Positions 1,188 to 60,466 of a stretch of DNA of 64,000 nt are shown here, one piece after another (the stretch's first letter is position 1; each line of letters begins with the position of its first letter). The notes beneath the pieces were generated by a model. It was given only the letters and a program-made list of their open reading frames with translations. It did no database searches and was not told the origin of the DNA. The stretch spans positions 32,001 through 96,000 of IMG/VR virus record IMGVR_UViG_3300033067_001743; one strand, 5' to 3'. The position numbers and the translations under genes were made by a program. The DNA comes from a virus. Its lineage: Duplodnaviria; Caudoviricetes.

Positions 1188-2189
1188 TTACTTTTTTTTC
1201 CACATTTCGTATAAACCTTCCTCAACTTCGAACCTTTCAACAGACTTAACTTTTCTATCTGGTTGATTCTCAGCCCATTTCCACATTCTCCATAACCCAT
1301 CTTGAAGTTTAGTTTTACATTCAAGACCTAAAATTTCCCTTGCCTTATCATGGTTTGAGTATGCATATCTTACTTCATGTATTCCCGGAAGGATTTCTAA
1401 ATCAAGTACATTTGTACAAACCGTCTTACAAATATTTGCGGCTTCAAGTATTGTCATTTCTTCATCATTCCCTATGTTGAATGTTTCCCATAGTGTATCA
1501 TCACTTGTTCCGCACAACCAAAGAGGCTCAAGAATATCATCTACATATGTAAAGGCTCTCTGTTGAAGTCCATCTCCGTATATTGACAAAGGTTCTCCAT
1601 TGAGTGTTTTTCTCATCCAAATCCCAAGTACGTTTCGATATTGGTCCCAAATGTTTTGGTATTTTCCATAAACGGAATGTGGTCTTACTATTGTCCATCT
1701 TAAACCATGTGTTTCCCTTGCTGCTGCTAAGTCCATCTCTACAGCATACTTTCCTATTCCATATGGGTCAACTGGTGCTGGGGTTTGATGTTCCTCAAAT
1801 GGAGGTTGGTTTCTTCCGTATACTGCCATTGAAGAGAAATATACTAATCGCTGAACCTTATATTTTATGCAAAGGTTCACTATATTAGCAGAATTTACAA
1901 TATTGTTAGTGTAATAAAACATCCTTCTATAGGTTGCACATGCTTCTGCTGCAATCGCTGCTGCATGATAAACTATTTCTACATCATATTTCTCAAATAG
2001 ATACTCAAGGTCTGTTCCACAATCCTGAAAATACATCTCTACACAATCGGGAACAAAATCATAATATCCACCGGATAAGTCATCTACACCAATTAAAACA
2101 TATTCTGGGTGATTTTTACATATCCATTCTGCTAAGTTTGCACCCAAACACCCAGCAACTCCTGTTATCATTATTGCTTTTTTCTTCAT
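1188..2189 (-). CDS. NAD-dependent NDP-sugar epimerase/dehydratase (extended SDR, GalE-like)
   Basis: TGVAGCLG Rossmann motif, FSSMAVYG, catalytic YGIGK (YxxxK), RAFTYVDD. Confidence 0.92.
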   Translation of the reverse strand: MKKKAIMITGVAGCLGANLAEWICKNHPEYVLIGVDDLSGGYYDFVPDCVEMYFQDCGTDLEYLFEKYDVEIVYHAAAIAAEACATYRRMFYYTNNIVNSANIVNLCIKYKVQRLVYFSSMAVYGRNQPPFEEHQTPAPVDPYGIGKYAVEMDLAAARETHGLRWTIVRPHSVYGKYQNIWDQYRNVLGIWMRKTLNGEPLSIYGDGLQQRAFTYVDDILEPLWLCGTSDDTLWETFNIGNDEEMTILEAANICKTVCTNVLDLEILPGIHEVRYAYSNHDKAREILGLECKTKLQDGLWRMWKWAENQPDRKVKSVERFEVEEGLYEMWKKK

Positions 2190-2190
2190 T

Positions 2191-2808
2191 TTACTTTCGC
2201 TTTATTACCATTAATCCGGGTGAACTTTTTACATGTTCTACAATTTCAAAATCACCTTCTCTCAGTAACTCTAATATTGGAGGCATTAATTGTTTTCTGA
2301 ATAAAGTCGTATCATGGAATATTATGTATTTAGATACTAAACTTTTATGTTTGTTTAATTGTAATTTTAAATGTCCCATTGTATGTTTGGAGTCAATAAA
2401 TAGTAGGTCTGTTGGTTCAATATCTATTTTAGAATCATCACCTTCTATTGCTACAAAATCAATTCCCTCATTCATAGCCAATTTCAATGCCCAAAGCAAC
2501 CATAAATTTTTCCTATTAAATTCTGGGATACTCTTACTTGCTCTCTTATGTAAATCAATGTCAATTGATACCAATTTCTTTGGTTTTGCTGCTAAAAATG
2601 CATATGTTGAATTTACTTGATTTATGCCAAACTCTGTAATGTGCTCACATTCCTCTGAATACTTTCTTAAAATCTCCATGTAAGGTGCAATCCACATTAT
2701 TGAATCTCTACCTTTCTGATCTTCTGGATTTGATGCTATAAAACTATAATTTTCCTCTATAGTAGGAAATAATCCATATTTTTCTCTAAACCTTTCATTG
2801 TCTATCAC
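2191..2808 (-). CDS. class I SAM-dependent methyltransferase-like protein (Methyltransf_24 type)
   Basis: ITEFG motif I, VSID, DLLFIDSKH, IIFHDT. Confidence 0.75.
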   Translation of the reverse strand: MIDNERFREKYGLFPTIEENYSFIASNPEDQKGRDSIMWIAPYMEILRKYSEECEHITEFGINQVNSTYAFLAAKPKKLVSIDIDLHKRASKSIPEFNRKNLWLLWALKLAMNEGIDFVAIEGDDSKIDIEPTDLLFIDSKHTMGHLKLQLNKHKSLVSKYIIFHDTTLFRKQLMPPILELLREGDFEIVEHVKSSPGLMVIKRK

Positions 2809-3245
2809 TTAATTCCCTCCGTTCTTATTAACCTGTGAAATAACTCATCAATAGCATTTTTATTCCTTGCTCTTCCTTCGTTTGACTTTCTTGTAAGTTT
2901 TTCATTAACCAAGATAACATCAAAATTTGGGTTTTCACTTGTTATTTCTTTTAGACGTTTACGATCTCCTTCTCCTATTAGAATATTCGACTTTATCAAT
3001 TCCTCTATGTTTTCTACAATAGCCTCTTCATCAAAGGTTCTCCTTTCACTGAGATAATCGTAATTGCCTTCTGAAACACATTCAAGTATTAATTCTGATA
3101 ATCTACTCTTTATTTCTGTTATTATCTTAACTTGCTGTTGAGTTTCTTCTATCTTTCCATCTTTGTTGAAAAAGAAATGTTTTATGTTTTCAACAATTAA
3201 CCTATCTATTAATGCTGATAAAGCATCTATATTTGTAAGTCTCAA
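2805..3245 (-). CDS. helical hypothetical protein (DUF4254-like)
   Basis: LIDRLIVENIK and NEGRARNKNAID segments; translationally coupled to the methyltransferase. Confidence 0.5.
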   Translation of the reverse strand: MRLTNIDALSALIDRLIVENIKHFFFNKDGKIEETQQQVKIITEIKSRLSELILECVSEGNYDYLSERRTFDEEAIVENIEELIKSNILIGEGDRKRLKEITSENPNFDVILVNEKLTRKSNEGRARNKNAIDELFHRLIRTEGIK

Positions 3246-3745
3246 TATTCATTCTCCATAGTTTTAAGTTCTATATGTTTACTAAATAGTAATAACCACT
3301 CTGAACTGAAATTAGAATCATTATTAAACCTTTCATTAAATTCAATTTCTGTAAGTAGTCTGTATATTGGTCCACATTGACCTCTTGGGTCCATTTCTGT
3401 AAGTTCTTCAAACCAATTTAATTTATCTCTATTTTCAAACCTCCAAACACTATCGTCCATTAAGTTTTTATATAGATCATAAAATATATTAGTTTCAGTC
3501 TTTATTTTAAGTTTTTCATACATTTCTGGATTAACTACTATATTATTAGTTACTCCTTCATCTTTATCCAAATACTCATGTGCCAACTGATTAACTGCAA
3601 TAAAGTCTGTATCAATGTCAGAATAATGTATGTGTTCAAATGCCTCCATTAACTCGTTTTTATCTTCTTCTGTTGGTACAATTATTACATACTTAGTAAA
3701 AGGTACTGTTTTCCAGTCTGTTATATTTTCTTCGTATTTTTTCAT
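3242..3745 (-). CDS. hypothetical protein
   Basis: 167 aa ORF with ATGA overlaps on both sides. Confidence 0.65.
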   Translation of the reverse strand: MKKYEENITDWKTVPFTKYVIIVPTEEDKNELMEAFEHIHYSDIDTDFIAVNQLAHEYLDKDEGVTNNIVVNPEMYEKLKIKTETNIFYDLYKNLMDDSVWRFENRDKLNWFEELTEMDPRGQCGPIYRLLTEIEFNERFNNDSNFSSEWLLLFSKHIELKTMENEY

Positions 3746-4824: not shown

Positions 4825-5913
4825 TTATTCTGTTTCAAAACCTTCTAATTTAGTTAACCATTCATATGTGTGCATTACCAGTTTTTCTGGGTTATACAAT
4901 CTACTATATGCTTCTTTCATATCTTCACCTTGCCAAGGTTTATATTTGCCCCAATTATCTAAAACATCTACTACTTTATCAACTAATGTTTTAAACTCCC
5001 AATCACATTTTAAATATGAACCTGTTCTACTTTTGTATGGATTTGGTGTGCTTTCAATGTGATACATACTTGGCTTAATCAATACTGCACCAAATTGTGC
5101 TGCTTCTATATCTCGTGGAGCCATTTCACCATAACCAAAGGGAGCAATGACAATTTTAGCCCTACTCATCAAATTATAGTAATATTCAATTGGAACCTTT
5201 TTTCCATCTTCCAATTTCGCTACTGTTATGTTTTTTGGGAGTTTATCTAATTCTTCGATACACTTCTTTCGATGAAGGTCATAATCAAGGTTTGTTAAAC
5301 AACCAAATTCCCAGTTTACTTTAGCCGGATATGAAAACATTGCAAATACATCAATATCCTTATGTAATTTTGATGTATCATACCATACCGGATTAATAGT
5401 TGATAACCAATTACAACCAGATAATTGAACCTTTTTTAGTGTGTCTATTTCATCTTCTCTAATTGCATAGCCAAAACTCTCTGTATTTTTTTGATTTAGG
5501 TTTAATAGTGGTTCTCCAAGTCCCCAATAACTCCTTCCCATCTTCCAAGGCTTTAGGTAATCGTTCCTGTCAGCATATAAACTGTTCTTGAAAAGTAATT
5601 TTGCTTTACTATTCTTGAATACATCAAAACTTCCTATAAGACTTGCACTATCCTGTCCGTCAAATAACACATAATCACCTTCTATTTCAGTTTCTAAATA
5701 ATGAAGACCTCTTGATATAACATTACCATATGTGTATGTTTCAAAGTTCTTTTTATCATTGAAACTTGCTTGGGCTACCCATGTTAAATCACACTTTCCC
5801 TCAGTTACAAATTGTACTCCAATATCTTCAAATAAATTCTTAGCCATTAAATATGGCCGAAATGTTGTTTCATTGCGATGTTTAAACAGTTCTGCTAACT
5901 TTACTTTTATCAT
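4825..5913 (-). CDS. GT-B fold glycosyltransferase-like protein
   Basis: C-terminal YYNLMSRAKIVIAPFGYGEMAPRDIEAAQFGAVLIKP donor-binding signature. Confidence 0.75.
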   Translation of the reverse strand: MIKVKLAELFKHRNETTFRPYLMAKNLFEDIGVQFVTEGKCDLTWVAQASFNDKKNFETYTYGNVISRGLHYLETEIEGDYVLFDGQDSASLIGSFDVFKNSKAKLLFKNSLYADRNDYLKPWKMGRSYWGLGEPLLNLNQKNTESFGYAIREDEIDTLKKVQLSGCNWLSTINPVWYDTSKLHKDIDVFAMFSYPAKVNWEFGCLTNLDYDLHRKKCIEELDKLPKNITVAKLEDGKKVPIEYYYNLMSRAKIVIAPFGYGEMAPRDIEAAQFGAVLIKPSMYHIESTPNPYKSRTGSYLKCDWEFKTLVDKVVDVLDNWGKYKPWQGEDMKEAYSRLYNPEKLVMHTYEWLTKLEGFETE

Positions 5914-6641
5914 GGTTTAATTTTATCGTACATCTCATTTTGTCTAACTTGTCGATCAATATTTTTAATGTGGAACAAAGCATATCCAAAGTGATCTACA
6001 CCATCTTCATCTTTTGAAAATAGAGGTGCTATTATTGGAGACTTGTGTTCTTTTGTTAGAACCTCATGTACTTTATTTTTCCAATATATTTCGCCATTAT
6101 TCTTAAATAATCTTACTTGATAATCTGGGTAATTAATAATCTCAAGATTTCTACTTTCAACCCCTGCTAATTCCAATACATTATTTGTAGATGAATCATT
6201 TTTATGAATTCTTTTCTTTTTTACATACCAACCCCATTTAGTTATCCACTCTTGAGTTAAACCTTTGACAATATTAACTCTAGGTATTGCCCATGCTTCT
6301 ATATCTGGATTTAAGTATGAATCTGTTAAAACATTTAATGTATCAAATAAAAACTCCGAAACTAACTCATCAGCATCAATTTGAAATACCCAAGGATTTT
6401 TTGCATATTTCAACATATTATTTTTGAAACTTGCAAAGTCTCCATTTAATGGATATTCAATGTAAGTAAAATAGTCTCTCTTCATTAAAGGACTTATTAC
6501 AGACACTACCTGTGTTGTAACATTGCCCTGATCTCCCTGAACTATAATTTCATCACCATCCTTCAAATACTTTGATATTTGTCCCAATAGTAATTTCAAT
6601 TCAATATGCTCATTACAAACTGGTATGCAATAACTAATCAT
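5910..6641 (-). CDS. glycosyltransferase family 2 (GT-A)
   Basis: ISYCIPVCNE start, IDADE DxD motif, PDYQVRLF...VHE. Confidence 0.88.
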   Translation of the reverse strand: MISYCIPVCNEHIELKLLLGQISKYLKDGDEIIVQGDQGNVTTQVVSVISPLMKRDYFTYIEYPLNGDFASFKNNMLKYAKNPWVFQIDADELVSEFLFDTLNVLTDSYLNPDIEAWAIPRVNIVKGLTQEWITKWGWYVKKKRIHKNDSSTNNVLELAGVESRNLEIINYPDYQVRLFKNNGEIYWKNKVHEVLTKEHKSPIIAPLFSKDEDGVDHFGYALFHIKNIDRQVRQNEMYDKIKP

Positions 6642-6865
6642 GTTGTTTGTTTTGGTTCTATGTAATAAAATAAATTATCTAACGCATTCCCGGTTTCACC
6701 ATCAAATTCAAATTTCCCACACACTATAACTTTATATGGTTTGCCTGTATCAGGGTTGTATTTTGTTTTTATATCGGTTATTTTTATATCTGATAAAGTG
6801 CAAAATGATGAATCTCCATCATGGTAAACCATGTCCCCAATATTTAATTCATTTAAAGTTTTCAT
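6638..6865 (-). CDS. hypothetical protein
   Basis: 75 aa coupled ORF. Confidence 0.55.
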   Translation of the reverse strand: MKTLNELNIGDMVYHDGDSSFCTLSDIKITDIKTKYNPDTGKPYKVIVCGKFEFDGETGNALDNLFYYIEPKQTT

Positions 6866-7350
6866 TACTCTTCATTTGATTGTGAAACTCTGCTGTAAAA
6901 ATCTAATGTCGCGTCTTCGAATTGAAATTCACCATAAATGTTTGTTGTACTTTCATCCAGAACCTTGAATTGTTTTCCAATTTGAACAGAAACTACATGA
7001 GGTTCAGGTAATACGCCTTCCTCAAGTAACTTAAATGATGATACTTTCCAAATTAATTCTGGTCCATCTACTGTTGAAGTTATATCCGGGTTAAGAACTA
7101 CATCAGGAGTCATCATTATTATTTTAACCCAAACATTCCCATTTTCATCTACAAATTTAGTCCTTTGAATTAGTTCAGGAGAAACAGATAAAAACTTTTC
7201 CACAATTTCTGATCCTTCTTTCCATGAATCGAAGGTTTGGTATCCAGACTCCATGCAAAGACGCATGTTCTGGTTTTTTGTACTATCCAATTCTACCATA
7301 ACACACATATTGCCTGTTATTGGTGATATTTCATCATAATTTAGTCTCAT
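6865..7350 (-). CDS. hypothetical protein
   Basis: 161 aa ORF with TAATG coupling; SPITG...CMESGY. Confidence 0.65.
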   Translation of the reverse strand: MRLNYDEISPITGNMCVMVELDSTKNQNMRLCMESGYQTFDSWKEGSEIVEKFLSVSPELIQRTKFVDENGNVWVKIIMMTPDVVLNPDITSTVDGPELIWKVSSFKLLEEGVLPEPHVVSVQIGKQFKVLDESTTNIYGEFQFEDATLDFYSRVSQSNEE

Positions 7351-8666
7351 TATTCTGCTTTCTTTAGTTGTGGTAATTTTAATACTCTTGGTGTTGTTGC
7401 TATTTCTTCAAAACAGCCATATCTATCCAAAATATCTTTTAGTTTTTCAGTCATTTTCTCAAAGGAAAAGTTATCTGATGTATATTTTGGATGTTTGCGG
7501 CTTCTAACTAAGAATTTTTCATAGTTCTCAAACATGTCATTCATAAGTTGAGCAGCATATGGGTAACTAACTTGGAACCATTCTGAATCCGTTATCCATT
7601 CATTTTGTGCCGAACGATCAATTTTAATCATTTTACCGGGAAGTAGTTCTGAAAAATCTGGGTTCAAGAAATCAACTGGTCCTGAGTAGTTTGGTGCTAT
7701 TACAGGTTTTCCAGTAGAAGTGAATTCAAGTAGTGGCAATCCAAATCCTTCTCCGTGTGTAAAAGATACCATTGCTGAAATTTTTGGATGATTATACAAT
7801 TCATTCATTTCTTGTTCAGTTAGGTCTCCATTCAAAACATAAACATTTGGGAATTTTCCATTAAACCCTTGCTCTCTAAACATGTCTTGAATCTGTCGAA
7901 CCTTATCAATGATTTGATCTCGCTCAGTTATAGAAAATCCTGCACCAGAAGATTTTAGAACCAAGGCTGGACGGTTCTTTTTATTTTTAAATGTATTGAA
8001 GAATGTGTGAACCAACATACCAACGTCTTTCCTATCATGTCCAAGTTGAGCATTTATCCAGTGACCAACAAATAAGTAAGAAAAGGGTTCTTCAATCATC
8101 TTATTCAACTGATCTGTCAAGTCTGACTTTACAATAGTTTTTTTATTGTATATTGTTGTATCTAATCCTTCAAATAAAACTTCAATTGGTTTATTTACTT
8201 GTAATGTTCCATTCGCATTTTTAGTTACTTTATCAATACTCAAGTGTTGCGTTTGCATTGCAACCTGTTTAGTAAACTCACTTGGTACTATACACATATC
8301 AACTCTATTCATTCCTTCAACCATATTAACAGGTAAAAGACTTGCTTCTGATAATGCACTGATTCCAAATGACTTTTTTCCTATTCTTTGAAATTCTGGT
8401 GGTATTGTTATGTGAATACTCACATCAGGTTCACTATCAATCCTGTTATTAGGTAGCAATAAGTTCATCAATTCAACATCTTCTGGATTGCTGGGGCTTA
8501 ATGCTGTTAATGGGGTTCCCCCCCACTTTATTGATATAAGTTTAATATCATACTTTTCAACCACTTCTGGTATTGCTAACAAAGACTTTATGATCAGTCT
8601 TGAGTGTTGGCCATAACCTGACCTCGATTGAAATGGGGAAATAACTACAAGGCTCTTTTTGCTCAT
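7350..8666 (-). CDS. glycosyltransferase family 4-like (GT-B)
   Basis: SRSGYG, DRKD, HGEGFGLPLLEF...GKPVIA. Confidence 0.9.
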   Translation of the reverse strand: MSKKSLVVISPFQSRSGYGQHSRLIIKSLLAIPEVVEKYDIKLISIKWGGTPLTALSPSNPEDVELMNLLLPNNRIDSEPDVSIHITIPPEFQRIGKKSFGISALSEASLLPVNMVEGMNRVDMCIVPSEFTKQVAMQTQHLSIDKVTKNANGTLQVNKPIEVLFEGLDTTIYNKKTIVKSDLTDQLNKMIEEPFSYLFVGHWINAQLGHDRKDVGMLVHTFFNTFKNKKNRPALVLKSSGAGFSITERDQIIDKVRQIQDMFREQGFNGKFPNVYVLNGDLTEQEMNELYNHPKISAMVSFTHGEGFGLPLLEFTSTGKPVIAPNYSGPVDFLNPDFSELLPGKMIKIDRSAQNEWITDSEWFQVSYPYAAQLMNDMFENYEKFLVRSRKHPKYTSDNFSFEKMTEKLKDILDRYGCFEEIATTPRVLKLPQLKKAE

Positions 8667-9088: not shown

Positions 9089-9520
9089 TTATATATTTGT
9101 TAAGTCGTTTACAATTTTATTCACTCTATCCTCTACTGTTGGAATTGTCAACTTTTTTTCAAGTTCCTTAATCTCTCTTTTTAGTTTTGAGATTTTTTCT
9201 CTTGTTGCCTTTTCTTTTTGTCGTTTAAGTAGATCATCAATTAATTTTTCTGTTTCTATTAACATATAATTTTCAAACCCTAATCGTTCTTTCAACTCTT
9301 CATTAGTCAAATACTTTTGAAGTACTTTTAGATCAATTATATCATCAAATGCAGTTTCGTCTATTTTCTTATAAAGTGGATCACTATTTTTTAGTGATCC
9401 TGTATTTTTATATAGATAACTGTCTTCTACAAAAACATTAATTGGAGATACAAACTCTTTGTTAAACTCATCAGGATCATCTTCGTAGTATTTATAATAT
9501 TCTTCTGGATTTTTTACCAT
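9089..9520 (-). CDS. hypothetical coiled-coil protein
   Basis: 143 aa ORF with a K/E-rich C-terminus. Confidence 0.55.
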   Translation of the reverse strand: MVKNPEEYYKYYEDDPDEFNKEFVSPINVFVEDSYLYKNTGSLKNSDPLYKKIDETAFDDIIDLKVLQKYLTNEELKERLGFENYMLIETEKLIDDLLKRQKEKATREKISKLKREIKELEKKLTIPTVEDRVNKIVNDLTNI

Positions 9521-11022
9521 AATGTAATTCCCATGTATCCCATATTAACTGTTGGAGATATTTTTATTATTTCATATCTTGGTCTTGGCTTGTATGCCTT
9601 AAATAAGGTTTCTAAGCCACTTTTAAAACCTTTGCACATATTTACACTGCCCATACCACTTTCTTCGCTTATAACCCATTCTCTGCCTTCCAGCCCACGT
9701 TTTTCCCTGTCTTCTTTGGTTAGTTTGTAAACTTCCATCAATCGTTCGGCTCCATCTTCTGCATCACAAACATCATCAAAAATATATGGAGTAGGAATTG
9801 AACCTTGTAACTGTCTTGCTCGTGGAAAAATTGGAAATGCCCAATTTCCATGATCTTTATATTTACCCCTTGAGTTAGTTGCGAATTCAGGACTAAATTC
9901 TATCCATTTACCATCTTCATCTGTGAACCTCATTTGGTCTTGAAGTCCACCTGTAACAGGTGCTATGATTGGAGTCCCGGTTAGTAAACTTTCATTTGCT
10001 GCTAATCCAAATCCTTCAGCAGATGACATAAACATTGTAACATCAGATAAATTATAAAACCAATTCAGTACACTTGTTGGTAATTGTTCCTGATTAAACA
10101 AAACTCTATAGTTTGGACATATTGCTTTCTTTACTGCTAAAAGGTCTGTACCATTTTCGTCTTGAATGTGGGTTTTCATTAGAAGGCAACATTTCTTTGC
10201 TTGTTCTTTTGGTAATGTATCACAGAATAATTTATAAGCCAGTATAACATCTCCCGGCTGTTTTCTACGAATATTCCTGCTGTTATAAAACACAACAAAA
10301 TCAATGTTATTTGGTTTTAGGAAATTATCTCTAAACTGAATATACTCTTTCCAATCAGGCGATTCTTCTGTTTCTTTGTAGAAATATTTTTCTGTTGAAC
10401 CATGAGGAAGGTACTTTAACAACACACCTTTAAGTTCTTGGCCATTTTCTAATTTATCTAAATCAGTATAATCTGTATTGTTGTACTTTAAACACTCAGA
10501 ATTTACAACCTTTGTACCTTTATTAATGGAAAATAACATATCACAAGATGAATATGCGCTTGAATTCCACAATGGAATAATGTGAGAATCCCATATGTTT
10601 ACATAAACTAATGGAATTTTATATTCCGATCTAAGTTCATGTTCCATGTAAAATAACCATCCCCAAAACCTTGGGTCTGTAATGAAAACAATTGCATCTG
10701 GTTTCTCATATGCAATAACCTCTCTCAAAACATCAGGAGTTCCGTAACCAGAGTGAGCATACAACATTACATTTGCATCTTCAACTCCTGTTTCGTTCCT
10801 AATATCTTGAGAAAGGTCTATTTTTTTTCCGTGTTCTGGGTGATTTAAGGCTGCGCCCAATTGTACCCAATCATATTTATCTACTGATCCTACTACTAAC
10901 TCTCTACTGATTGTACTAATTCCTGATTGAAATCTAATATCATCTCCAAGTAGTAATATTTTTTGTTTCTTCTGTGTATCCGAACTTAATTTTCGGAGTT
11001 TTGGAAGGTTAATTTGATTCAA
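9514..11022 (-). CDS. glycosyltransferase family 4-like (GT-B)
   Basis: SGIS, RNIRRKQ, AEGFGLAANES...GTPIIA..TGGLQDQ; TTG start with GAGGTG SD. Confidence 0.9.
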   Translation of the reverse strand: MNQINLPKLRKLSSDTQKKQKILLLGDDIRFQSGISTISRELVVGSVDKYDWVQLGAALNHPEHGKKIDLSQDIRNETGVEDANVMLYAHSGYGTPDVLREVIAYEKPDAIVFITDPRFWGWLFYMEHELRSEYKIPLVYVNIWDSHIIPLWNSSAYSSCDMLFSINKGTKVVNSECLKYNNTDYTDLDKLENGQELKGVLLKYLPHGSTEKYFYKETEESPDWKEYIQFRDNFLKPNNIDFVVFYNSRNIRRKQPGDVILAYKLFCDTLPKEQAKKCCLLMKTHIQDENGTDLLAVKKAICPNYRVLFNQEQLPTSVLNWFYNLSDVTMFMSSAEGFGLAANESLLTGTPIIAPVTGGLQDQMRFTDEDGKWIEFSPEFATNSRGKYKDHGNWAFPIFPRARQLQGSIPTPYIFDDVCDAEDGAERLMEVYKLTKEDREKRGLEGREWVISEESGMGSVNMCKGFKSGLETLFKAYKPRPRYEIIKISPTVNMGYMGITLW

Positions 11023-11379: not shown

Positions 11380-11784
11380 TTAAATGAATACCACTGGGAT
11401 ATTCTTTTTTTCTGCTTTTTTCCTAATGTTGTCATAAAGATTCCAGTCTAAATCAGATTGTGCTGAACCTATTACAAGTCTATCAGTTCGAATCAACATT
11501 TCCTGATAACGATGTGGAATGTGACTTGGATGTTTTCCTTTGCCAAAATACTCTTTTGGTAAAAAAGAATACATATTGTGACCTGTATAACTTGGATTAA
11601 ATTCCTTGTATGGTAGATCAAACTCAAGTGAAAACTTTTTTACATCATACTCAATTCCAGTTAGATTCCCACCACTAAAAATAGTGGCAGTATCACTAAA
11701 TGTTTTCTTCACTTGAAAAAGAAATTCCTTAACCTTAGTTGTGTAGTTGGTGTCAACACCTCCTATTATTCCAATTCTGTACAT
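11380..11784 (-). CDS. SLOG-superfamily (YspA/DUF2493-like) protein
   Basis: IGIIGG...FSGGNLTGIE...C-terminal KKNIPVVFI pattern. Confidence 0.6.
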   Translation of the reverse strand: MYRIGIIGGVDTNYTTKVKEFLFQVKKTFSDTATIFSGGNLTGIEYDVKKFSLEFDLPYKEFNPSYTGHNMYSFLPKEYFGKGKHPSHIPHRYQEMLIRTDRLVIGSAQSDLDWNLYDNIRKKAEKKNIPVVFI

Positions 11785-49495: not shown

Positions 49496-49502
49496 ATTCA
49501 AT

Positions 49503-49554: not shown

Positions 49555-49586
49555 TTTGGTAGTTCAAAAACCTTCCAGTATCTTTG
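49555..49586 (+). promoter_or_regulatory. Bacteroidota sigma-A type promoter
   Basis: TTTG-N20-TATCTTTG, exact consensus. Confidence 0.85.
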
Positions 49587-51442: not shown

Positions 51443-53287
51443 TTATTCCTTCGCATCAACTGGGAATACTGCACCTGTTGGCAATACTACAAAGTCTACT
51501 ATGATAAATTCGGCTGTTTTAGCAGGTTTCAAGTAGATTTGTGCTCTCATTTCATTTCTGTCAACAACGTCTGGGGTGTTATTTCTTTCGTCGATTATAA
51601 TTCTATAATCGTATAAACCTTGTTGGTTTTGAACATTCCTGAAATATGGCTCCACTAACTCAATGAATTTCGCACGAGTTTCGACTGTGTTGTTCTCAAA
51701 CACTAAATACTTAACTGTGTATGATACGAACCTTTTTGCGTCAATCAAAAGCCTTCTAACGTTAATACGGTCAAGTGCTGAACGTTTCTTCTGCAAGGTT
51801 TTTTGTCCCCATACTGTAATACCCTGACGAGGGAATGTAGCAATAGGATTTATAGACTTAATGTATAGATTATCTCTATCATTTTGAGTCATTAACCTTT
51901 CAGTTTGTATAACTGTATCCAATCCACCTCTATTCAAACCTGCTGGGGCAAACCAAGGATGTGCTACCAAGTCATTGAAAGAGTAAACTGCTGAAACAAC
52001 TGCTGATGGTGGAACCCACACATTCCTTCCCAAATCTGGGTCTGGAATTTGACACCAAGGATAGTACATAGCAGCATAATTTGTATTACGTGCTTCTGCT
52101 GTCTGTTGTGCTTGTCCTACTGTAGAACCTTTATACGTTGGATCAATGATGTACATAATATCACCACGATCTTCACACATATTAATACCACGAGTTATTA
52201 TCGCTCCATGACCTGTTGCATTATCCAACAATCCCGGTGTAAACAACAAATTGATGTCGTATTGGTCTTTGTTACTCAAAATGTCAATAGCGTCTTGGTA
52301 AGCAGTTTGTCCCCATCCACCTGATGCCGGATTAAATCCTTGTGTATTTACATCTTTAATGTTTTCATACATTGCTCTTGGGTGAAGTACATTACCCTCA
52401 CTACCACCTGCAAAAGTTCCTGATGCAGCCTGTGGAAGTGATCCTGATAATGATCCTGCCCTTATCTGTCCTGCTGCATTCAAATATGCTAATGTGTTTT
52501 GCACACCTTCTACACGAATAAACCTTGATCTATTTGGAAATGATCCTGATCGTTCTAAATATGGAGCACCCGATGAATCGTATCTTAACGTATTTGTTTG
52601 GTCTCCAATTACACGAGAAATGTAATTAGTTGTATCTGGATCAAGACTCAATTGTGAGTATTGTTCTAATACTATTTTTCTATTTGGAAGATCATCACCC
52701 CTACGAATATAAAGATCAAATACACCTCTATTTTGGTCAACGTTTGCTATCTCCCAACGAATGTTGTAGGCAGAACCTGACAACAACAATCCATTTACTC
52801 CATCTTCATCAGAAGTTAATCCAGAGCCTGATACAGATGCTGATAATTGACCACTGTTTAGGGCTTCACCTTCACTAAGTCCTACAATCTTAAATGACAT
52901 GTTATTAGCACCATATGACGCTGTTCCAGTAGATGCAGATACAGCATAAGAACCTGATGACCATACATAAGAATATGCTGGTTGATAGTTTCCATTAAGT
53001 ATCCTAACTACTGTCATAACTTCACCATGACGCAAATACTCTTGTACACAGTGAGTTGTTAAATATTTATACATTCTCTGACTTGCACCAGAACCTGAAA
53101 CAAATATATCTCCAAACCATCTTATGTATTCGCTATATGTACTAATAGGAGTAGGTGAAAAGGCTGGACCTCTAACAGTTGGTCCGATTACGGCTGCACC
53201 AACTGCTGGAATTTGCTGTGGTAAAAAACTTAAATCAAATTCCCTTGTAAAAACTCCCGCCGAAAGAAAGACATTATTACTTGCCAT
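51443..53287 (-). CDS. tail sheath protein
   Basis: S.GVFTRE.D, GPT..GP, PWFAPAG.NRG, INPI, WGQKT, RINVRRL, FENN, AEFI. Confidence 0.97.
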   Translation of the reverse strand: MASNNVFLSAGVFTREFDLSFLPQQIPAVGAAVIGPTVRGPAFSPTPISTYSEYIRWFGDIFVSGSGASQRMYKYLTTHCVQEYLRHGEVMTVVRILNGNYQPAYSYVWSSGSYAVSASTGTASYGANNMSFKIVGLSEGEALNSGQLSASVSGSGLTSDEDGVNGLLLSGSAYNIRWEIANVDQNRGVFDLYIRRGDDLPNRKIVLEQYSQLSLDPDTTNYISRVIGDQTNTLRYDSSGAPYLERSGSFPNRSRFIRVEGVQNTLAYLNAAGQIRAGSLSGSLPQAASGTFAGGSEGNVLHPRAMYENIKDVNTQGFNPASGGWGQTAYQDAIDILSNKDQYDINLLFTPGLLDNATGHGAIITRGINMCEDRGDIMYIIDPTYKGSTVGQAQQTAEARNTNYAAMYYPWCQIPDPDLGRNVWVPPSAVVSAVYSFNDLVAHPWFAPAGLNRGGLDTVIQTERLMTQNDRDNLYIKSINPIATFPRQGITVWGQKTLQKKRSALDRINVRRLLIDAKRFVSYTVKYLVFENNTVETRAKFIELVEPYFRNVQNQQGLYDYRIIIDERNNTPDVVDRNEMRAQIYLKPAKTAEFIIVDFVVLPTGAVFPVDAKE

Positions 53288-53666: not shown

Positions 53667-54836
53667 TCAACGAACATATATTTTTAATGGTACATAACTT
53701 AATTGTTTACTCATTGCATCTGCAATTGCACTTTTTCTTTCTAATTGTGCTTGCATAGATGTTGAATCTAATGTTTCTTTTAATTCTGTTAATAATGCTT
53801 CTTTTTCTGTTGCAGCAGCACTTAATAAATCTGATCCATTTAATGTAACCTCACCATCTGGAATTGGCATTGATGAGTATTTTGATCTAATATATCCCAA
53901 CATTTCTTTACAGATTGCAAGGGTATATTTTCGTATCCACTGTTTACCAATTTCATTAATATATCTATATGTTATATTTTGATATGGTATATTAGATATG
54001 TCACTTATTTTACCTGAACCACCATCTCCGTTTAAATCAAAATTAGTACCTTCTGCATCAAGTGAATAATGGAACCATAAATTAAATGATGTACTTGGTA
54101 TTGGGAATATTCTAAGTCTATTTCCAGTCAATTGAAAACTATATCCACTTTTCCTTATTTCATCATTAAATTCTATTTGCTGCATTCTCAATACATCATA
54201 GTATATTGGCATGAGCATATATGTTCCGGGTAAAGTGTAATTATTCCACCCAAATTCATTTGTTACTGCATCTGCAATTGTTCCTGCGGCTGGATCATTA
54301 TATCGTACTGATGCAGGTTTTAATTTATGAAATATTTTTCTAATGGTAAATTGATCTGTAGCAAATGATCCTGTTTCAATTGTTGTATCATTTATTAAAT
54401 TGTATACTTGTTTTCCCTGAACAACAGAAACCGATCCTGTGTAGTACGTTTGTGTTCCACCAGCACCAACCTCTGACCCATATGCTTTTGCTAACCTGAA
54501 TATACCTCTTAGTGTCTGTGGGATGTATTTTCCAGACAGATTTGAACTTCCTGTTGGAAATCCTTGTAAATTAATTAAATTATCCCTTGCTTGGTAGAAA
54601 TTAACTAAGGCTCCATATTCATTTGTCGCTTCTTCAAATGCAGCATAAAAATTAATTTCATTTAATTCTACATCTGCTATTGGAAAACCTAATCGAAGAG
54701 CAGCCCACTTTGCAGTAGATTCAGCGTCATCTTGGAAATCTGGATCATTATCATAAAAACCAAAGGGAGTATATGTTAATGGAAAGAAAGAACCTGATCC
54801 GGGCCAAATGTCTATGTTTGGGTCTGTTTGAGACAT
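53667..54836 (-). CDS. neck/head-tail adaptor protein (T4 gp13-like)
   Basis: RLGFPIADVEL, WIRKYTLA..KEMLG.IRSKY..MPIP.GEVTLNG. Confidence 0.85.
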   Translation of the reverse strand: MSQTDPNIDIWPGSGSFFPLTYTPFGFYDNDPDFQDDAESTAKWAALRLGFPIADVELNEINFYAAFEEATNEYGALVNFYQARDNLINLQGFPTGSSNLSGKYIPQTLRGIFRLAKAYGSEVGAGGTQTYYTGSVSVVQGKQVYNLINDTTIETGSFATDQFTIRKIFHKLKPASVRYNDPAAGTIADAVTNEFGWNNYTLPGTYMLMPIYYDVLRMQQIEFNDEIRKSGYSFQLTGNRLRIFPIPSTSFNLWFHYSLDAEGTNFDLNGDGGSGKISDISNIPYQNITYRYINEIGKQWIRKYTLAICKEMLGYIRSKYSSMPIPDGEVTLNGSDLLSAAATEKEALLTELKETLDSTSMQAQLERKSAIADAMSKQLSYVPLKIYVR

Positions 54837-55716: not shown

Positions 55717-57378
55717 TCAAAGAATTAATGCACATTCGTAAAACAATCCTGTTGCGTTTTGTGGTACTTTACAGTGAAGAAAACTCAATGTATTAGACCC
55801 ATCTATTAATGTAGATAATGCTAATTTATTTTGTATTTGATCACCTACAGAACCAACAATTGTTGGAATTGGAGTTATAGGAGTTAACTCTCTATTTCTC
55901 ACATCCAATCTAAAAACTCCAATTGGGCCTGCCCCGGTAGTAAATGGAGCATAAAAATAAATATATCTACCTTCTTTAGATATTCCATCATATACAAATC
56001 CCATTCCTGTTATTGGAGTTATTAAATTCGCATAGTTAGGTGTAGTGGAGTAACTAGACCAGACACCAGTAGCAGCACCTGATATATCTAATACGTCCAT
56101 AGGATTTCCACCTGTAGCGGCTGCTCTGGTACTATATATCATAGATGGTTTAATAAATAGTGATGGATCAACAACCCCAAAAATTTGTTCTGAACCAATT
56201 CCAGCAGTTGATGGAGCAGATGTTCTGGCTGCCCAAGTTGAGGTATCCCATGTATTGGCCCCAACATTATAGTTGTAGACAGTTGTTGCATTTGTTAAAA
56301 ATATAATTTTATCATTATCATTCTCAATAACAAACTTACAAGTTGATGAAGGTGTTACTGTCCAGTTAGAAGCCAATGTATAAACCGGACTTGGTCCTGC
56401 TGTGTGGGAAGTTATTCTTCTCCTTTGTCCTACTGCTGTTGGAGTTGTTGCATCTTCCACAATCCTAACTTGGAAGTTTCTAAATTGATTTGCTATTAAA
56501 GTAGCATCACCATTAGAAGATTGTCCTGTTATTGTCCCAGCAGCAGTTGCAGTAGCAAGTAAACAGTTCTTTGCCCATGAACCTGAATCATATGTAGATG
56601 CTCCAACTACAAAACCTTCTCCCGGATACCTATTATAAGGTACAAATGATTCATCTAATATTACTATATCGTTAAATACAACACCTACTGTTGCTGGAAG
56701 GTTTGTAGTGGATAATGCGACAGATGTAATGCCTGTTGCTATGTCATGGTTTCTCCATTCTTTTGAAGCGCCTGTTGACAACATCCATAATTTACCAGAA
56801 AGTAATTCATATCTACTACCTGATGTTGGTGTAAAGGTTAGTGGTTCATTCAAATATACTTGAATAGTAGACCCAGATGAATTTGCTACTATTCTTCTTT
56901 CTTCTATTTTCCCAGAAGAACCCGAATTATTATCAATAATCCTTAATATATACCCAAGACCATCCCCTCGGTCTGCAAGTTGATTTATATCTACGTTTCC
57001 AGTTGATATATTATTTAACCATAACATTGAAGTGGTTGCAGAACCTGTTGGTTGTGCTGATGAACCTGATATTGATCCAGTTGGACCACCAGAGGGCTGA
57101 AAATCCCAAGCCACAGCACTTGTTACTGTTCCTCCTAATGTTTGAGAGAATTGATTGTTTTTCCATCCGTTTGTAGTGGCATTATATGATTGGTATATTG
57201 TTGTAGATGCTATAAACAAGTATTTCCTTGGATCAGCATAGTTTCTACTTCTCCTATCAAATGCAAACCCCCCGTTAACACTTCCTGCTGGTACACCATA
57301 AGTGGCAGTTGGTTGTACTGCTATACCACGCCATTGTATTTTATCTAAGTATTTTTTACTATTATTTGTTATTGCCAT
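55717..57378 (-). CDS. beta-rich (propeller-like) virion/receptor-binding protein
   Basis: 553 aa, T/S/G-rich; YN...N.W Kelch-like blades; duplicated RI.....RRI insert. Confidence 0.6.
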   Translation of the reverse strand: MAITNNSKKYLDKIQWRGIAVQPTATYGVPAGSVNGGFAFDRRSRNYADPRKYLFIASTTIYQSYNATTNGWKNNQFSQTLGGTVTSAVAWDFQPSGGPTGSISGSSAQPTGSATTSMLWLNNISTGNVDINQLADRGDGLGYILRIIDNNSGSSGKIEERRIVANSSGSTIQVYLNEPLTFTPTSGSRYELLSGKLWMLSTGASKEWRNHDIATGITSVALSTTNLPATVGVVFNDIVILDESFVPYNRYPGEGFVVGASTYDSGSWAKNCLLATATAAGTITGQSSNGDATLIANQFRNFQVRIVEDATTPTAVGQRRRITSHTAGPSPVYTLASNWTVTPSSTCKFVIENDNDKIIFLTNATTVYNYNVGANTWDTSTWAARTSAPSTAGIGSEQIFGVVDPSLFIKPSMIYSTRAAATGGNPMDVLDISGAATGVWSSYSTTPNYANLITPITGMGFVYDGISKEGRYIYFYAPFTTGAGPIGVFRLDVRNRELTPITPIPTIVGSVGDQIQNKLALSTLIDGSNTLSFLHCKVPQNATGLFYECALIL

Positions 57379-57941: not shown

Positions 57942-59738
57942 TTATCCTAATGCTATTGCAAATGCTATTGCTTGTCCTGCTGTTATACCACCACCTACAT
58001 TTGTTAACCTTGATCCATCTCCTGCAAATGCACTTGCACTTACTAAACCTGATGATGATATTGTCATTCTAACATTTTGTGGACCTCCAACTACAAAATC
58101 AATACTTGATGATGGATGTGTAGTTGGTGTTAGGTTTCCTATTATTAATTTTGATCCTGTTGTATATAAATATGCATCATTTGCTTTTCCTAAAAATTGT
58201 GGTTGATTATATCCACTTCCATTGATTCCCATATCAATGTAATTTCCAATCTCTGTCCCAGTATCATTTGTTGCAACTATATCTGATGATGCAGTTGTTG
58301 CAGTATTTTTATTTTGAATGTTTAACTGTAAATAATTATCAATATTCCCACTTGCTGTAATAGCATTAATTGAAGTTGCACCTGATAATTTAAGAACCTT
58401 TAATATTTTATCAAATAAAAAGTCTGATGAACCTGATATTGATCCTGCATCATTAAATTGTACTGATTGATTTGGCCCGGCTGGATTTGCTGATGCCACT
58501 ATTCCTGTTAATCCAGAGCCGTCTCCTACAAACGAACTTGATATTTGTCCTACTACATTAATACTTCCAGTAACATTAATACTTCCAGTAACAATTTGAT
58601 TAGACTTAAATATATTGGAACCTGTTGTGGCGTATGAAGCAGTGTTTTGTTCAATTATACCAAGTCTTAATAAAATTGATTCAGTTACTGTATTTAAACT
58701 TCCAGTTGTTTGCTCTAAATGAAATATTCTATTTGAAAATGAACTTGATAGTGTTGTAAAAGAACCTGATATATCACTTGATATTTGACTTGATGAAGAT
58801 ACTACACCACGGCCTTTTCCCTCATACTTAATGTCATATGAAGAACTTATTTGATCACTTCCTGATACAATATTTGGAATTAAGTTGTTTATCTGCTGAC
58901 TGGAACTAAGTAATCCAGTTGGCGTATTTGTTATTTGATTATAATTTACTTGTGCTGATGCACTAAACAATACACTTGGTCTATTTAATAAATTATTATA
59001 ATCTACTTGTTGACTGGAACTTATAAACCCATTAGAACTGCTTAAAATTCCAGAAGGTATTCCCGTAATCTGACTATATATTACTTGTGAAGAACCTGAA
59101 AATAATGACTTACTATCATATACAGATAGTCTATTGGCCAAAGAAGATGATACGTTTGTAAATGCTCCACTTATCTCAGTTTTTATAGCATATGAAGATG
59201 TACCATTTTCTAACCTTTGTATTTTGGTATCTGTTGAACTGGTATAAGTGTTGTAACTTGATGTAAATGTATTCTGTAAAAAAGAACTTGTAGAAAATGA
59301 TCCAGATATTTGTTGAAAATTTACCTGCTGAGAAGACGATATAAGAGACTTTGACTCAAATACAGTTATTCTCCCACTCAAAGCATTTGATGCGCTTAGA
59401 AATGATCCTGAGATGTCAGAGCCTATCTGTGCAGATGAAGATATTAAATTAGTACCCCGTTGCTCATATCTCAAATCATATGAACCTGTTAACTGTTCCG
59501 ATCCTGATACTAAATTGGAAGGTAGGTATGCTATAACTTGTTGACTTGAACTAACTATTCCAGATGGTGGAGTGTATTCACCTCCATCACTTCCTTTTGG
59601 TCCTTGTGGTCCGGGTTCATATATTTCTACTATAGAAGGAGGGTTCTCTTCTACTGCAATTACAGTTATTTCACTATTTGACTCAAAAACCTGTAATTTA
59701 ACATCGTCTCCATCTATAATATAAACTTGATCTGGCAT
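57942..59738 (-). CDS. Ser-rich tail fibre / virion protein
   Basis: Short collagen motif GPQGPKG; many (I/V)S(S/G)S.Q(I/V) repeats; C-terminal GQAIAFAIALG. Confidence 0.7.
   Translation of the reverse strand: MPDQVYIIDGDDVKLQVFESNSEITVIAVEENPPSIVEIYEPGPQGPKGSDGGEYTPPSGIVSSSQQVIAYLPSNLVSGSEQLTGSYDLRYEQRGTNLISSSAQIGSDISGSFLSASNALSGRITVFESKSLISSSQQVNFQQISGSFSTSSFLQNTFTSSYNTYTSSTDTKIQRLENGTSSYAIKTEISGAFTNVSSSLANRLSVYDSKSLFSGSSQVIYSQITGIPSGILSSSNGFISSSQQVDYNNLLNRPSVLFSASAQVNYNQITNTPTGLLSSSQQINNLIPNIVSGSDQISSSYDIKYEGKGRGVVSSSSQISSDISGSFTTLSSSFSNRIFHLEQTTGSLNTVTESILLRLGIIEQNTASYATTGSNIFKSNQIVTGSINVTGSINVVGQISSSFVGDGSGLTGIVASANPAGPNQSVQFNDAGSISGSSDFLFDKILKVLKLSGATSINAITASGNIDNYLQLNIQNKNTATTASSDIVATNDTGTEIGNYIDMGINGSGYNQPQFLGKANDAYLYTTGSKLIIGNLTPTTHPSSSIDFVVGGPQNVRMTISSSGLVSASAFAGDGSRLTNVGGGITAGQAIAFAIALG
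58555..58593. repeat. 18-bp tandem duplication
   Basis: ACATTAATACTTCCAGTA x2; encodes VTGSIN VTGSIN. Confidence 0.85.
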
Positions 59739-59742
59739 TAAA

Positions 59743-60138
59743 TCATCTCGTCACTTCTTTTAAAACCTTTACTGTTCCACTTATTAATTCTTTAACATAC
59801 TGATTTACTCCTGAACCTGAATATATTTCTATATCTATAAAAGCATTATCAAAATTAAATTGGCTTGATGAATATGCACTTATAACCATTCCAATACTAC
59901 CACTACTTCTTGGTAGAACAACAGATGCACTTGTTGGAGTCATGTAAAATCCAGTTCCATCAGGTTGAACAGAACTGGAAATATTACATAAAATTACATT
60001 AGATGTATAGGTAGGTCTTATCTGACCACGAACCTCGTAGCCAGTAAAATCAAAAGGAACTAGTGGATTGCCAGTTTTATAGACAAATCTCCTTTCAAAG
60101 GTTTTACCCTGTTTTATTACAAACGAATACCTAGACAT
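59743..60138 (-). CDS. virion adaptor protein (BppU-N/Ig-like)
   Basis: I.QG.TF....P.D.TGY..RGQIR...DIEI.SG.....LI.G.V....EVTR. Confidence 0.65.
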   Translation of the reverse strand: MSRYSFVIKQGKTFERRFVYKTGNPLVPFDFTGYEVRGQIRPTYTSNVILCNISSSVQPDGTGFYMTPTSASVVLPRSSGSIGMVISAYSSSQFNFDNAFIDIEIYSGSGVNQYVKELISGTVKVLKEVTR

Positions 60139-60160
60139 AAACTTCCCTATTTATGGGTGA

Positions 60161-60466
60161 TTAAACCCAAGCAGCCCAACTTGCTGTTACACCCGTTGAT
60201 GCTGGTACAAATCCTGATCCTGTTGCATAAAATCTCAATGTTGATCCTGATGCATTTGTATTTACAACTGTAATTGAATATTGTGGAGTTGTTGTTGATG
60301 ATCCATAATTTACTGAATTAGCAATTACAACACTTGGTGCTGATATTAATGAGTGTGTTATAACAATTGATCCAGAGTTATCCGTTGATCCAGATGTTAA
60401 ACCTTTAGCAAATACTGCTGTTTGATAATCAAATTGTTGGTAAGGTTGAAATTTTGCTCTTGGCAT
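60161..60466 (-). CDS. small virion protein (fibre-tip/H-lectin-like beta sandwich)
   Basis: ITHSL..APSVV...SWAAW; S/T/G-rich. Confidence 0.5.
   Translation of the reverse strand: MPRAKFQPYQQFDYQTAVFAKGLTSGSTDNSGSIVITHSLISAPSVVIANSVNYGSSTTTPQYSITVVNTNASGSTLRFYATGSGFVPASTGVTASWAAWV

Follow-up and report, generated by a model that had tools for sequence, protein, structure and literature searches.

Gene content of the locus

The window analysed here, a 64,000-nucleotide stretch of a tailed-phage genome (IMG/VR record IMGVR_UViG_3300033067_001743), comprises bases 32001-96000 of a single 122,495-bp viral contig that has a G+C content of 33% and carries its genes on the minus strand throughout. 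The window contains a cluster of genes for glycosyltransferases (GTs) and other sugar enzymes as well as a virion module, several products of which are rich in the tripeptide Ser/Thr-Gly-Ser ([ST]-G-S). In the initial annotation of this DNA, the two features were joined into a virion glycosylation system, with the tripeptide serving as the acceptor sequon for an O-glycan coat, possibly methyl-capped, that is built by five phage-encoded glycosyltransferases. We find that the tripeptide is strongly enriched in a small set of tail, neck and fibre proteins and that, among the genes of the phage, the presence of one glycosyltransferase gene, GT2_243, matches its distribution across related genomes.

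By its major capsid protein (MCP) and tail sheath, the phage is a large aquatic myovirus of the immuto/RM378 type, a distant T4-like lineage. The nearest named relatives, at about 45-56% amino-acid identity, are Flavobacterium phage vB_FspM_immuto (hereinafter immuto), Microcystis phage Mel-JY01 and LR756508, an uncultured phage of 484 kb; Rhodothermus phage RM378 is a more distant member of the lineage (MCP identity 35%). The hosts of these relatives, Rhodothermus, Flavobacterium and Microcystis, are very different. The lineage is very common in IMG/VR, where the MCP has at least 587 relatives and the sheath matches 55 loci at 55-95% identity. A megablast search of the structural region against phage records gave no match.

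Sugar enzymes of the cluster

Sequence and profile comparisons confirm three glycosyltransferases in the window, two of the GT4 type (GT438 and GT502) and one of the GT2 type (GT2_243); the other two of the five proteins that were initially counted as glycosyltransferases, p362 and p351, are leads only. GT2_243 (5910..6641) is a predicted soluble GT-A (GT2) enzyme, with a match to PF00535 (E 1.6e-3) that scores 18.9 against a cut-off of 23.3. The DxD signature, D89-A-D91-E92, is invariant in 5 orthologues, and the family to which the protein belongs has 3600 members, with PF00535 found on nearly all of the 120 listed. An NCBIfam match of GT2_243 to the peptide S-glycosyltransferase SunS was set aside as too weak (E 9e-4, over the N-terminal nucleotide-binding part only).

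GT438 (7350..8666) and GT502 (9514..11022) are adjacent, distant paralogues (cross-matches at E 1e-5 to 1e-8) that belong to the lineage core. Both are predicted GT4-type glycosyltransferases: GT438 matches PF00534 with 27.5 bits against a cut-off of 26.4, and GT502 falls just under the same cut-off with 26.3 bits. In each, the EX7E motif (E306-GFGLPLL-E314 in GT438, E336-GFGLAAN-E344 in GT502) and a basic pair (R212/K213 and R253/K254, respectively) are near-invariant in 10-11 orthologues. With these motifs and the DxD of GT2_243 intact, the enzymes look competent. The sequence matches of both proteins to solved GT4 enzymes span the C-terminal domain, and the GT-B fold is assigned from this similarity. 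The closest solved relative of GT502 is B736L of chlorovirus NY-2A (PDB 3oy2, E 5e-6, only the C-terminal Rossmann domain being covered), one of the virus-encoded glycosyltransferases of chloroviruses.

GT438 is present in every genome of the lineage except LR756508 and is absent from T4, P-SSM7 and ACP17. In a tblastn search of 50,697 phage records, GT502 was found in immuto, Mel-JY01, LR756508 and RM378 only; its identity with the immuto orthologue, 48.5%, is about the level of conservation of the MCP. The GT502 orthologue is represented by two open reading frames (ORFs) of 190 and 302 aa in Mel-JY01 (L096:3441-4932) and by a single 307-aa piece in the related genome G012, which could reflect a split gene, a frameshift or an assembly error.

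Between GT438 and GT2_243 lies a gene for a small protein, p161 (6865..7350), with orthologues at the same position in immuto and in a close relative, G003, and with no family match. On the other side of GT2_243, p362 (4825..5913) is a possible GT-B-like enzyme that this genome shares with G003 alone; in the ESM Atlas, it neighbours viral clusters that in part carry Glyco_trans_1_2, RXYLT1_C or GT90 (TM-scores of 0.65-0.88). The possible GT4-like protein p351 (13868..14923) has Atlas feature neighbours that include Glycos_transf_1 clusters and orthologues in G003, G002 and G001. No signal was obtained for p362 or p351 by Pfam, NCBIfam, PDB sequence search or hhalign. Aligned by hhalign with the confirmed glycosyltransferase families, these two proteins, as well as GT318, p350, p311 and p249, showed no similarity, the probabilities being below 6%.

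The cluster also encodes a nucleoside diphosphate (NDP)-sugar epimerase/dehydratase of the NAD-dependent short-chain dehydrogenase/reductase (SDR) family (1188..2189), GalE/RmlB-like by NCBIfam, for which the initial assignment is borne out by a PF01370 match at E 2.6e-39; a paralogue is located outside the window (L001:7913-8815). The next gene (2191..2808) may encode a sugar O-methyltransferase, by a weak match to PF04989 (RMNT_CmcI, E 1.1e-3, 19.1 bits against a cut-off of 23.2), and has a homologue in none of the 12 compared genomes. The methyl cap that had been suggested for the glycan would thus depend on a single sub-threshold match in a gene that is present in this genome only. A PD-(D/E)XK nuclease (11784..12734; PF12705, E 3.3e-16), which is not a glycosyltransferase, is the conserved neighbour of the GT4 pair: it is syntenic with the glycosyltransferase genes in immuto and Mel-JY01 and has orthologues in G001-G003. 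Further sugar genes outside the window include a second epimerase, a weak GT2, a GT8-like pair, a DAO-like oxidoreductase and a homologue of an immuto gene annotated as a mannosyltransferase.

None of the glycosyltransferases of the contig contains predicted transmembrane (TM) segments, and a scan for such segments, unaccompanied by a family search, revealed no multi-TM protein resembling a flippase, a polymerase or a membrane priming transferase on the contig. Apart from the tape measure protein, more than two TM segments were found only in one 201-aa ORF that is encoded far from the cluster. The combination of soluble glycosyltransferases and the lack of such a multi-TM protein fits direct, stepwise transfer onto a soluble acceptor.

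Proteins rich in the [ST]-G-S tripeptide

Of the 78 [ST]-G-S tripeptides encoded in the contig, 56 are held by seven proteins that together account for 7% of the contig residues: the tail sheath, a T4 gp13-like neck protein, p553, p598, p131, p101 and an out-of-window fibre, p451. The sheath (51443..53287; phrog_23, E 1e-71) contains six SGS, at residues 64, 111, 153, 170, 247 and 281, against 0.6 expected, and none in residues 284-614. The neck protein (53667..54836; phrog_211, E 1.4e-10), the profile of which matches the 309-aa neck protein of T4, has one SGS and three TGS (4 against 0.3 expected). Two small virion-module proteins are p131 (59743..60138), a member of phrog_1084, a group without functional annotation, with two SGS against 0.3 expected, and p101 (60161..60466), with three SGS and one TGS (4 against 0.3 expected, z 6.6); homology of p101 with a motif-rich 100-aa protein of RM378 was sought and not found.

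The remaining three proteins are longer. The virion-module protein p553 (55717..57378) has 7 motifs against 1.1 expected (z 6.1); it is fast-evolving and has no Pfam or PHROG match and no orthologue in the flanking DNA of the relatives. The fibre protein p598 (57942..59738), in which serine makes up 18.6% of the residues, has 13 motifs against 3.0 expected, and a short segment of it resembles a 373-aa protein of immuto that is itself motif-rich (12 against 1.3 expected). The 451-aa fibre p451, encoded at the end of the contig (L004:11013-12368; genome 121013-122368), has 20 motifs against 2.1 expected and includes five tandem copies of a 21-residue unit (IEQTTGSLNTYTGSNNTRLNT) with two TGS per copy. 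A tblastn search with p451 against the phage records gave no match, possibly through the low-complexity filter. Given that p451 and p598 share a common N-terminal domain, the two are paralogous fibres. A candidate late-promoter word, ATATTTAT on the coding strand, precedes the sheath and p553 genes; it is not enriched in the window (18 occurrences against 13 expected).

On recount, the motif numbers initially reported for the sheath, p101, the neck protein and p131 all proved exact, and the enrichment goes well beyond what the serine and glycine content of these proteins would produce. The pooled seven proteins have 56 motifs against 7.6 expected from whole-protein shuffles and 9.2 +/- 2.8 expected from shuffles within 15-residue blocks, which preserve local Ser/Gly richness; none of 2000 shuffles reached 56. 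Block shuffles of 15 and 30 residues rule out local Ser/Gly richness as the cause. The turn-type tripeptides in the seven proteins are SGS (31), TGS (25), SGT (3), TGT (2), DGS (3) and NGS (2), and the excess of SGS and TGS over SGT, TGT, DGS and NGS therefore shows that the order matters, with Ser strictly at position 3 and either Ser or Thr at position 1. No such preference is seen in the other 180 ORFs, in which these tripeptides are about evenly used (DGD 15, TGS 14, DGS 13, NGT 12, SGS 8). The signal is at the level of the protein rather than of the DNA: the codon pattern for the motif occurs 56, 0 and 0 times in frames 0, 1 and 2, respectively, with all six Ser codons in use, and a DNA-level cause is ruled out on these grounds.

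The portal, tube and baseplate proteins contain no [ST]-G-S and the MCP contains only one SGS, and in the tape measure protein (2 against 2.4 expected) and the non-virion proteins the tripeptide occurs at the chance level. Therefore, the target, if there is one, would be the tail surface, the neck and the fibres, and the notion of a coat over the whole virion, capsid included, has to be abandoned. Nor is the enrichment a general property of myovirus sheaths and fibres, given that those of T4, P-SSM7 and ACP17 are unenriched: the ratio of observed to expected motifs is 1.7-3.1 in nine genomes of the lineage that carry GT2_243 and 0.72, 1.18 and 1.11 in T4, P-SSM7 and ACP17, respectively.

Location of the motifs in the sheath

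We modelled the sheath with AlphaFold2 (AF2) from an alignment of 95 diverse sequences (pLDDT 89.4, pTM 0.86); an earlier AF2 model from 24 close relatives was discarded (pLDDT 53). The best fold match of the model is T4 gp18, over its full length (Foldseek, TM-score 0.63 to 9mkb). In the predicted structure, all six motifs occupy the same position, the first Ser closing a strand or helix and Gly-Ser opening a loop. Five of the six (sites 111-283) lie within a variable inserted region, the length of which differs widely among homologues and which in T4 gp18 and other sheaths forms the outer surface. The position in the model, along with what is established for T4 gp18, thus suggests that the sheath motifs are located at loops of the outer domains, in line with the exposed loops that had been proposed to carry them. 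Site 64, the sixth, adjoins the conserved RWFGD core and persists even in two relatives that otherwise have few motifs, G001 and G002.

Distribution of the motif and of GT2_243 across genomes

Twelve further genomes were fetched and all their ORFs scored, a protein being called motif-rich if it had at least 3 motifs and z of at least 3. Each of the genomes that encode GT2_243 (this contig, immuto, G003, G007, G011, G012, G016, Mel-JY01 and RM378) has 6-12 motif-rich proteins. The genomes in which GT2_243 is absent have few: 2 in G001, 1 in G002, 2 marginal ones among 716 ORFs in LR756508, and, among the outgroups, 0 in T4, 2 in P-SSM7 and 1 in ACP17. When the presence and absence of all 187 ORFs was profiled, GT2_243 alone equalled the motif-rich pattern, and the only non-structural genes of the lineage-specific core were GT502 and GT438.

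In a tree of concatenated MCP, portal, TerL and neck proteins, RM378 is basal, followed by LR756508 and then by immuto, whereas G001 and G002 are nested as the sister group to this genome and G003. The approximately unbiased (AU) test rejects the grouping of LR756508 with G001/G002 (p = 1.7e-5), so that GT2_243 was lost twice independently, with decay of the motif both times. The sheath illustrates this decay. G007, an outgroup to the subclade that includes G001 and G002, shares sites 64, 111, 170 and 247 with the window phage, whereas in G001/G002 site 111 has become QAG/KSA, site 170 DGS/EGT and site 247 IGT/KGN; in LR756508, both sheath paralogues and the neck protein lack [ST]GS altogether. 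Relatives without GT2_243 have thus lost the motifs rather than kept them, an outcome favourable to the proposed link between glycosyltransferase and motif.

The two sheath paralogues of LR756508 are adjacent and of 824 aa each (202463-208426; L265-L289). The presence of one other gene nearly parallels that of GT2_243, probably by coincidence: a 618-aa class II (B12-type) ribonucleotide reductase-like protein (25539-27395) has counterparts in G003, Mel-JY01 and RM378 and none in immuto, G001 and G002.

Conservation and selection

At five of the six sheath sites, [ST]GS is retained in 85-93% of 41-45 relatives, with variable flanks and interchange of Ser and Thr at position 1. The serines of the motif are more conserved than the other serines of the same protein: 0.84 against 0.60 in the sheath, 0.84 against 0.37 in the neck protein, 0.96 against 0.65 in p131 and 1.00 against 0.33 in p101. 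Both sites of p131 are kept in 83-100% of 6 relatives, and all four sites of p101 are kept in the sole relative found (63% identity). A wider set of 71 sheath representatives (36-62% identity) contains 323 motifs where 68.9 would be expected, and motifs are gained and lost at pre-existing glycine turns.

The motif-rich proteins of the other genomes are mostly fibres without sequence similarity to those of the window phage or to one another. Judging from these sequences, it is the density of the motif that is maintained rather than one inherited structure. Taken together, the enrichment, distribution and conservation confirm [ST]-G-S as a selected, lineage-wide feature of the tail surface, the neck and the fibres, not of the whole virion.

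Interpretation and alternatives

We propose that the phage's own enzymes attach O-linked sugars at the [ST]-G-S turns of the tail surface, a reading to which we assign about an even chance (a probability of roughly 0.5). The soluble glycosyltransferases would act in the host cytoplasm on nucleotide sugars, some of which would be reshaped by the phage epimerases, and an O-linked sugar would be placed on the Ser or Thr of [ST]-G-S. The acceptors would be located at glycine turns of the outer sheath domains, the gp13-like neck protein, the two small virion-module proteins and the fibres. GT2_243 is the best candidate for protein priming or another indispensable step, and GT438 and GT502, together with variable accessory enzymes (GT8-like, other GT-like, epimerase, methyltransferase and oxidoreductase genes, many of them outside the window), could extend and diversify the glycan. 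The conservation of the enzymes under unlike hosts suggests that the substrate belongs to the phage. As guesses at the role of such a glycan, it could shield the tail and fibres from proteases or recognition, or it could aid adsorption.

Extended to the entire aquatic myovirus lineage (RM378, immuto, Mel-JY01 and the at least 587 IMG/VR MCP relatives), the proposal would be one of sequon-directed tail O-glycosylation, with [ST]-G-S at exposed turns, GT2_243 indispensable and probably priming, and the GT4 pair and fast-changing accessory enzymes building a variable glycan; in this wider form we advance it tentatively, at slightly less than even odds. The original reading of the tripeptide as an O-glycan acceptor sequon is thus upheld in part. 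The computational checks suggested along with it came out as predicted, the enrichment and the co-distribution among them, but the whole-virion coat is lost, and the count of five glycosyltransferases and the methyl cap are overstated.

Several observations weigh against the proposal. The sugar on the motif serine, the acceptor residue and the priming enzyme are all inferred, and, to our knowledge, [ST]-G-S is not among the known bacterial O-glycosylation sequons. The capsid, a target in the known mycobacteriophage case, is not one here. In p451, the 21-residue repeat supplies ten of the 20 motifs, such that the counts are not independent and a structural role of the repeat motifs in the fibre shaft is possible. 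At sheath sites 170 and 247 of G001/G002, the glycine turn is retained and the hydroxyls are gone, which makes a turn-capping role plausible. The comparison across genomes comprises only three independent contrasts, all three in the expected direction (sign test p = 0.25), and significance is therefore out of reach; furthermore, the threshold for motif-rich proteins was our own choice, the observed-to-expected ratios of G011, G012 and G016 (1.7-1.8) overlap that of G001 (1.76), and the CheckV completeness of the contig of the window is about 67%. G001 and G002 have the GT4 pair and few motifs; therefore, the pair alone does not account for the motif. Finally, in every relative the GT4 pair is located in the replication module beside the PD-(D/E)XK nuclease, as DNA-modifying enzymes are (in RM378, the neighbours are polymerase, ribonucleotide reductase and Erf-like genes), and the late-promoter word ATATTTAT is absent from the cluster.

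Some of these observations would be expected if the motif were purely structural, a capped glycine turn or a repeat of the fibre shaft, with the glycosyltransferases serving another substrate. The placement of each sheath motif at the end of a strand or helix where a loop starts, the glycine that stays where Ser is lost, the regular repeat of p451 and the persistence of site 64 beside the RWFGD core even in G001 and G002 all agree with such a role. However, a generic turn would take Asp, Asn or Thr, whereas the seven proteins have 56 SGS and TGS against 10 SGT, TGT, DGS and NGS, which is not so elsewhere in the proteome; the sheaths and fibres of T4, P-SSM7 and ACP17 are not enriched; the motif-bearing folds (sheath domains, neck, small proteins, non-homologous fibres) are unrelated; and orthologous sheaths lose the motif exactly where GT2_243 was lost, twice. 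A purely structural motif thus appears unlikely, although it deserves serious consideration. We regard as still less probable that the tripeptide is the target of some other modification or partner: it might be phosphorylated, receive another acyl or glycosyl-like group from an enzyme that escaped recognition, or bind an assembly factor common to these proteins. It is evident from the conservation that the hydroxyls are important, though not for what purpose, and many ORFs in these genomes are unannotated; against this, GT2_243 alone among the 187 profiled ORFs tracks the motif, and no kinase or other modifying enzyme was found among the annotated proteins (about 70 ORFs scanned), which makes this explanation very improbable.

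The enzymes could also modify the phage DNA or an envelope glycan of the host, the co-distribution with the motif being a coincidence of a few events in the lineage. The replication-module context of the GT4 pair, the lack of the late-promoter word in the cluster and the number of independent contrasts, only three, are compatible with this possibility, and phage glycosyltransferases are best known for DNA glucosylation and serotype conversion (PMC12619734). All known routes of pyrimidine glycosylation first create an acceptor hydroxyl, in one of two ways: the 5-hydroxymethyl and 5-hydroxy pyrimidine routes begin with a ThyA homologue (PMC13326640, which covers the arabinosyl-5-hydroxycytosine of phages RB69 and DLP3), and the other route begins with a C5-methyltransferase and a TET-type dioxygenase (bioRxiv 10.1101/2023.12.21.572611). 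The ThyA family (PF00303) is absent from this contig, within the limit of its completeness, and from the complete genomes G002 and G003, and a ThyA profile search of the complete genomes of Mel-JY01 and RM378 found nothing. These four complete genomes, which retain the GT4 pair, thus lack a hydroxymethylase or hydroxylase of this family, the distribution of which is patchy elsewhere in the lineage.

No C5-methyltransferase (DNA_methylase) match above the cut-off was found in G000-G003; a Tet/JBP search gave no match, G002 and G003 included, but failed in every control genome as well and is uninformative. The DNA-modification genes vary between the relatives, with DpdA and queuosine-pathway (Que) genes in immuto and a PurA/PurZ-like gene in this genome, whereas the trio of glycosyltransferases is constant. 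As far as can be judged from gene content, the known routes to DNA glycosylation look unavailable to the lineage. A role in the host envelope fits poorly with the lack of a membrane-bound glycosyltransferase and of a multi-TM protein resembling a flippase or priming transferase on the contig, and with the occurrence of the same enzymes under hosts with unrelated envelopes. DNA or the host envelope as the substrate, with the motif following by coincidence, therefore seems improbable. The PurA/PurZ-like protein (61980-63104; 374 aa) is adenylosuccinate-synthase-like: it matches PHROG 1211, of the PurZ type, at E 3e-60, and, in NCBIfam, PurA (1e-36) ranks above PurZ (1.6e-14), with all scores far under the cut-offs. 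The gene raises the possibility of 2-aminoadenine in the phage DNA.

Other genes of the window and of the contig

Downstream of the sheath gene are three paralogues of about 160-180 aa (48504-48998, 49013-49567 and 50898-51374), all of which match one 162-aa gene of immuto that is located just downstream of the immuto sheath and is annotated as a tail completion protein; this looks like a triplicated tube-like gene. The tape-measure-like protein (41594-46948; 1784 aa) has eight hydrophobic segments, mostly within residues 1360-1520, and a homologue of 1006 aa in immuto. The 555-aa MCP, encoded outside the window (L003:9966-11633), aligns with the gp23-type profile over two separate segments (residues 33-103 and 305-537), implying an inserted domain of about 200 residues. 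The portal-homologous ORFs of G007 (1008 aa), G002 (1018 aa) and LR756508 (1386 aa) are long compared to the approximately 600-620 aa in other genomes of the lineage and could be fusions, products of inserted elements (for example, inteins) or artefacts of ORF calling.

Just past the end of the window (L003:1656-3815; genome 97656-99815), the contig encodes a 719-aa protein that combines a zinc metalloprotease domain of the reprolysin type with three FN3 domains and, at its C-terminus, a sorting domain for type IX secretion. This would be a phage-encoded secreted protease, and its type IX secretion domain indicates a host among Bacteroidota.

Relationship to known glycosylation systems and implications

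Virions are known to be glycosylated by virus-encoded enzymes in a few mycobacteriophages and in algal giant viruses; self-glycosylation of phage particles is not known to be widespread, and we know of no acceptor motif in tailed phages. A literature search for Mel-JY01, for RM378 glycosyltransferases and for glycosylated phage virions returned nothing on the present lineage. In chloroviruses, the capsid is glycosylated by virus-encoded cytosolic glycosyltransferases (A064R of PBCV-1 and others), with methylation of the sugars and a non-canonical acceptor motif. The system proposed here is similar in its large set of soluble glycosyltransferases and sugar enzymes, in its non-canonical acceptor motif and in that B736L is the nearest solved relative of GT502; it differs from the chlorovirus system in that the latter belongs to a eukaryotic virus and its glycans are N-linked and located on the major capsid protein.

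Another parallel is provided by GtfA/GtfB, the cytoplasmic enzymes that modify the serine-rich repeat adhesins of Gram-positive bacteria, which are adjacent GT4-type paralogues acting on Ser-rich acceptors along with GT2/GT8-type extenders. The phage likewise encodes an adjacent paralogous GT4-type pair and GT2/GT8-type enzymes. However, GtfB is non-catalytic, whereas EX7E is intact in both members of the phage pair; no orthology could be detected; and the phage acceptors would be short turn motifs, mostly not long Ser-rich repeats. With the DNA-glycosylating phages (T4, with its alpha- and beta-glucosyltransferases, RB69 and DLP3), the lineage shares soluble glycosyltransferases encoded among early or replication genes, but the hydroxyl-creating ThyA family is missing in the four complete relatives, all of which retain the GT4 pair, and the methyltransferase-TET pair was not found in the two relatives searched (G002 and G003; for Tet/JBP, with a search that lacked a working control). 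Unlike in the undecaprenyl phosphate (Und-P) lipid-carrier pathway of polysaccharide synthesis, no membrane priming transferase, flippase or polymerase was seen in the TM-segment scan.

The closest precedent among phages is the O-glycosylation of mycobacteriophage virions (Freeman et al. 2023, Cell Host Microbe 31:1216, as summarised in PMC12619734). There, enzymes encoded by the phage are proposed to add sugars to its own structural proteins while these are still in the cytoplasm, with the glycans located on the C-termini of the capsid and tail-tube subunits. The two cases share phage-encoded glycosyltransferases, a proposed glycan layer on the particle and a glycosyltransferase that co-occurs with an acceptor feature. 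They differ in the candidate targets, which here are [ST]-G-S turns internal to the sheath, neck and fibre proteins, with one motif in the MCP and none in the tube; in the enzymes, a lineage-specific GT4 pair and a GT2; in the hosts, Bacteroidota, cyanobacteria and Rhodothermus as opposed to Actinobacteria; and in that the present case is built on computational analysis.

Three members of the lineage, immuto (grown on Flavobacterium), RM378 (on Rhodothermus) and Mel-JY01 (on Microcystis), are cultured, and the proposal is therefore directly testable. Even if the link to sugars fails, a selected, lineage-wide motif on unrelated tail proteins still calls for an explanation. If the proposal is correct, [ST]-G-S would be the first defined acceptor motif for glycosylation of tailed-phage particles, with new targets and a new set of enzymes, and would provide a simple sequence rule by which glycosylated virion proteins could be predicted from genomes alone. 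It would also give a role to glycosyltransferase genes that belong to the core of a very common aquatic lineage and make up a large share of its genomes, and would place a glycan layer on the tail and fibres, the parts of the particle that meet the host surface, proteases and defence sensors.

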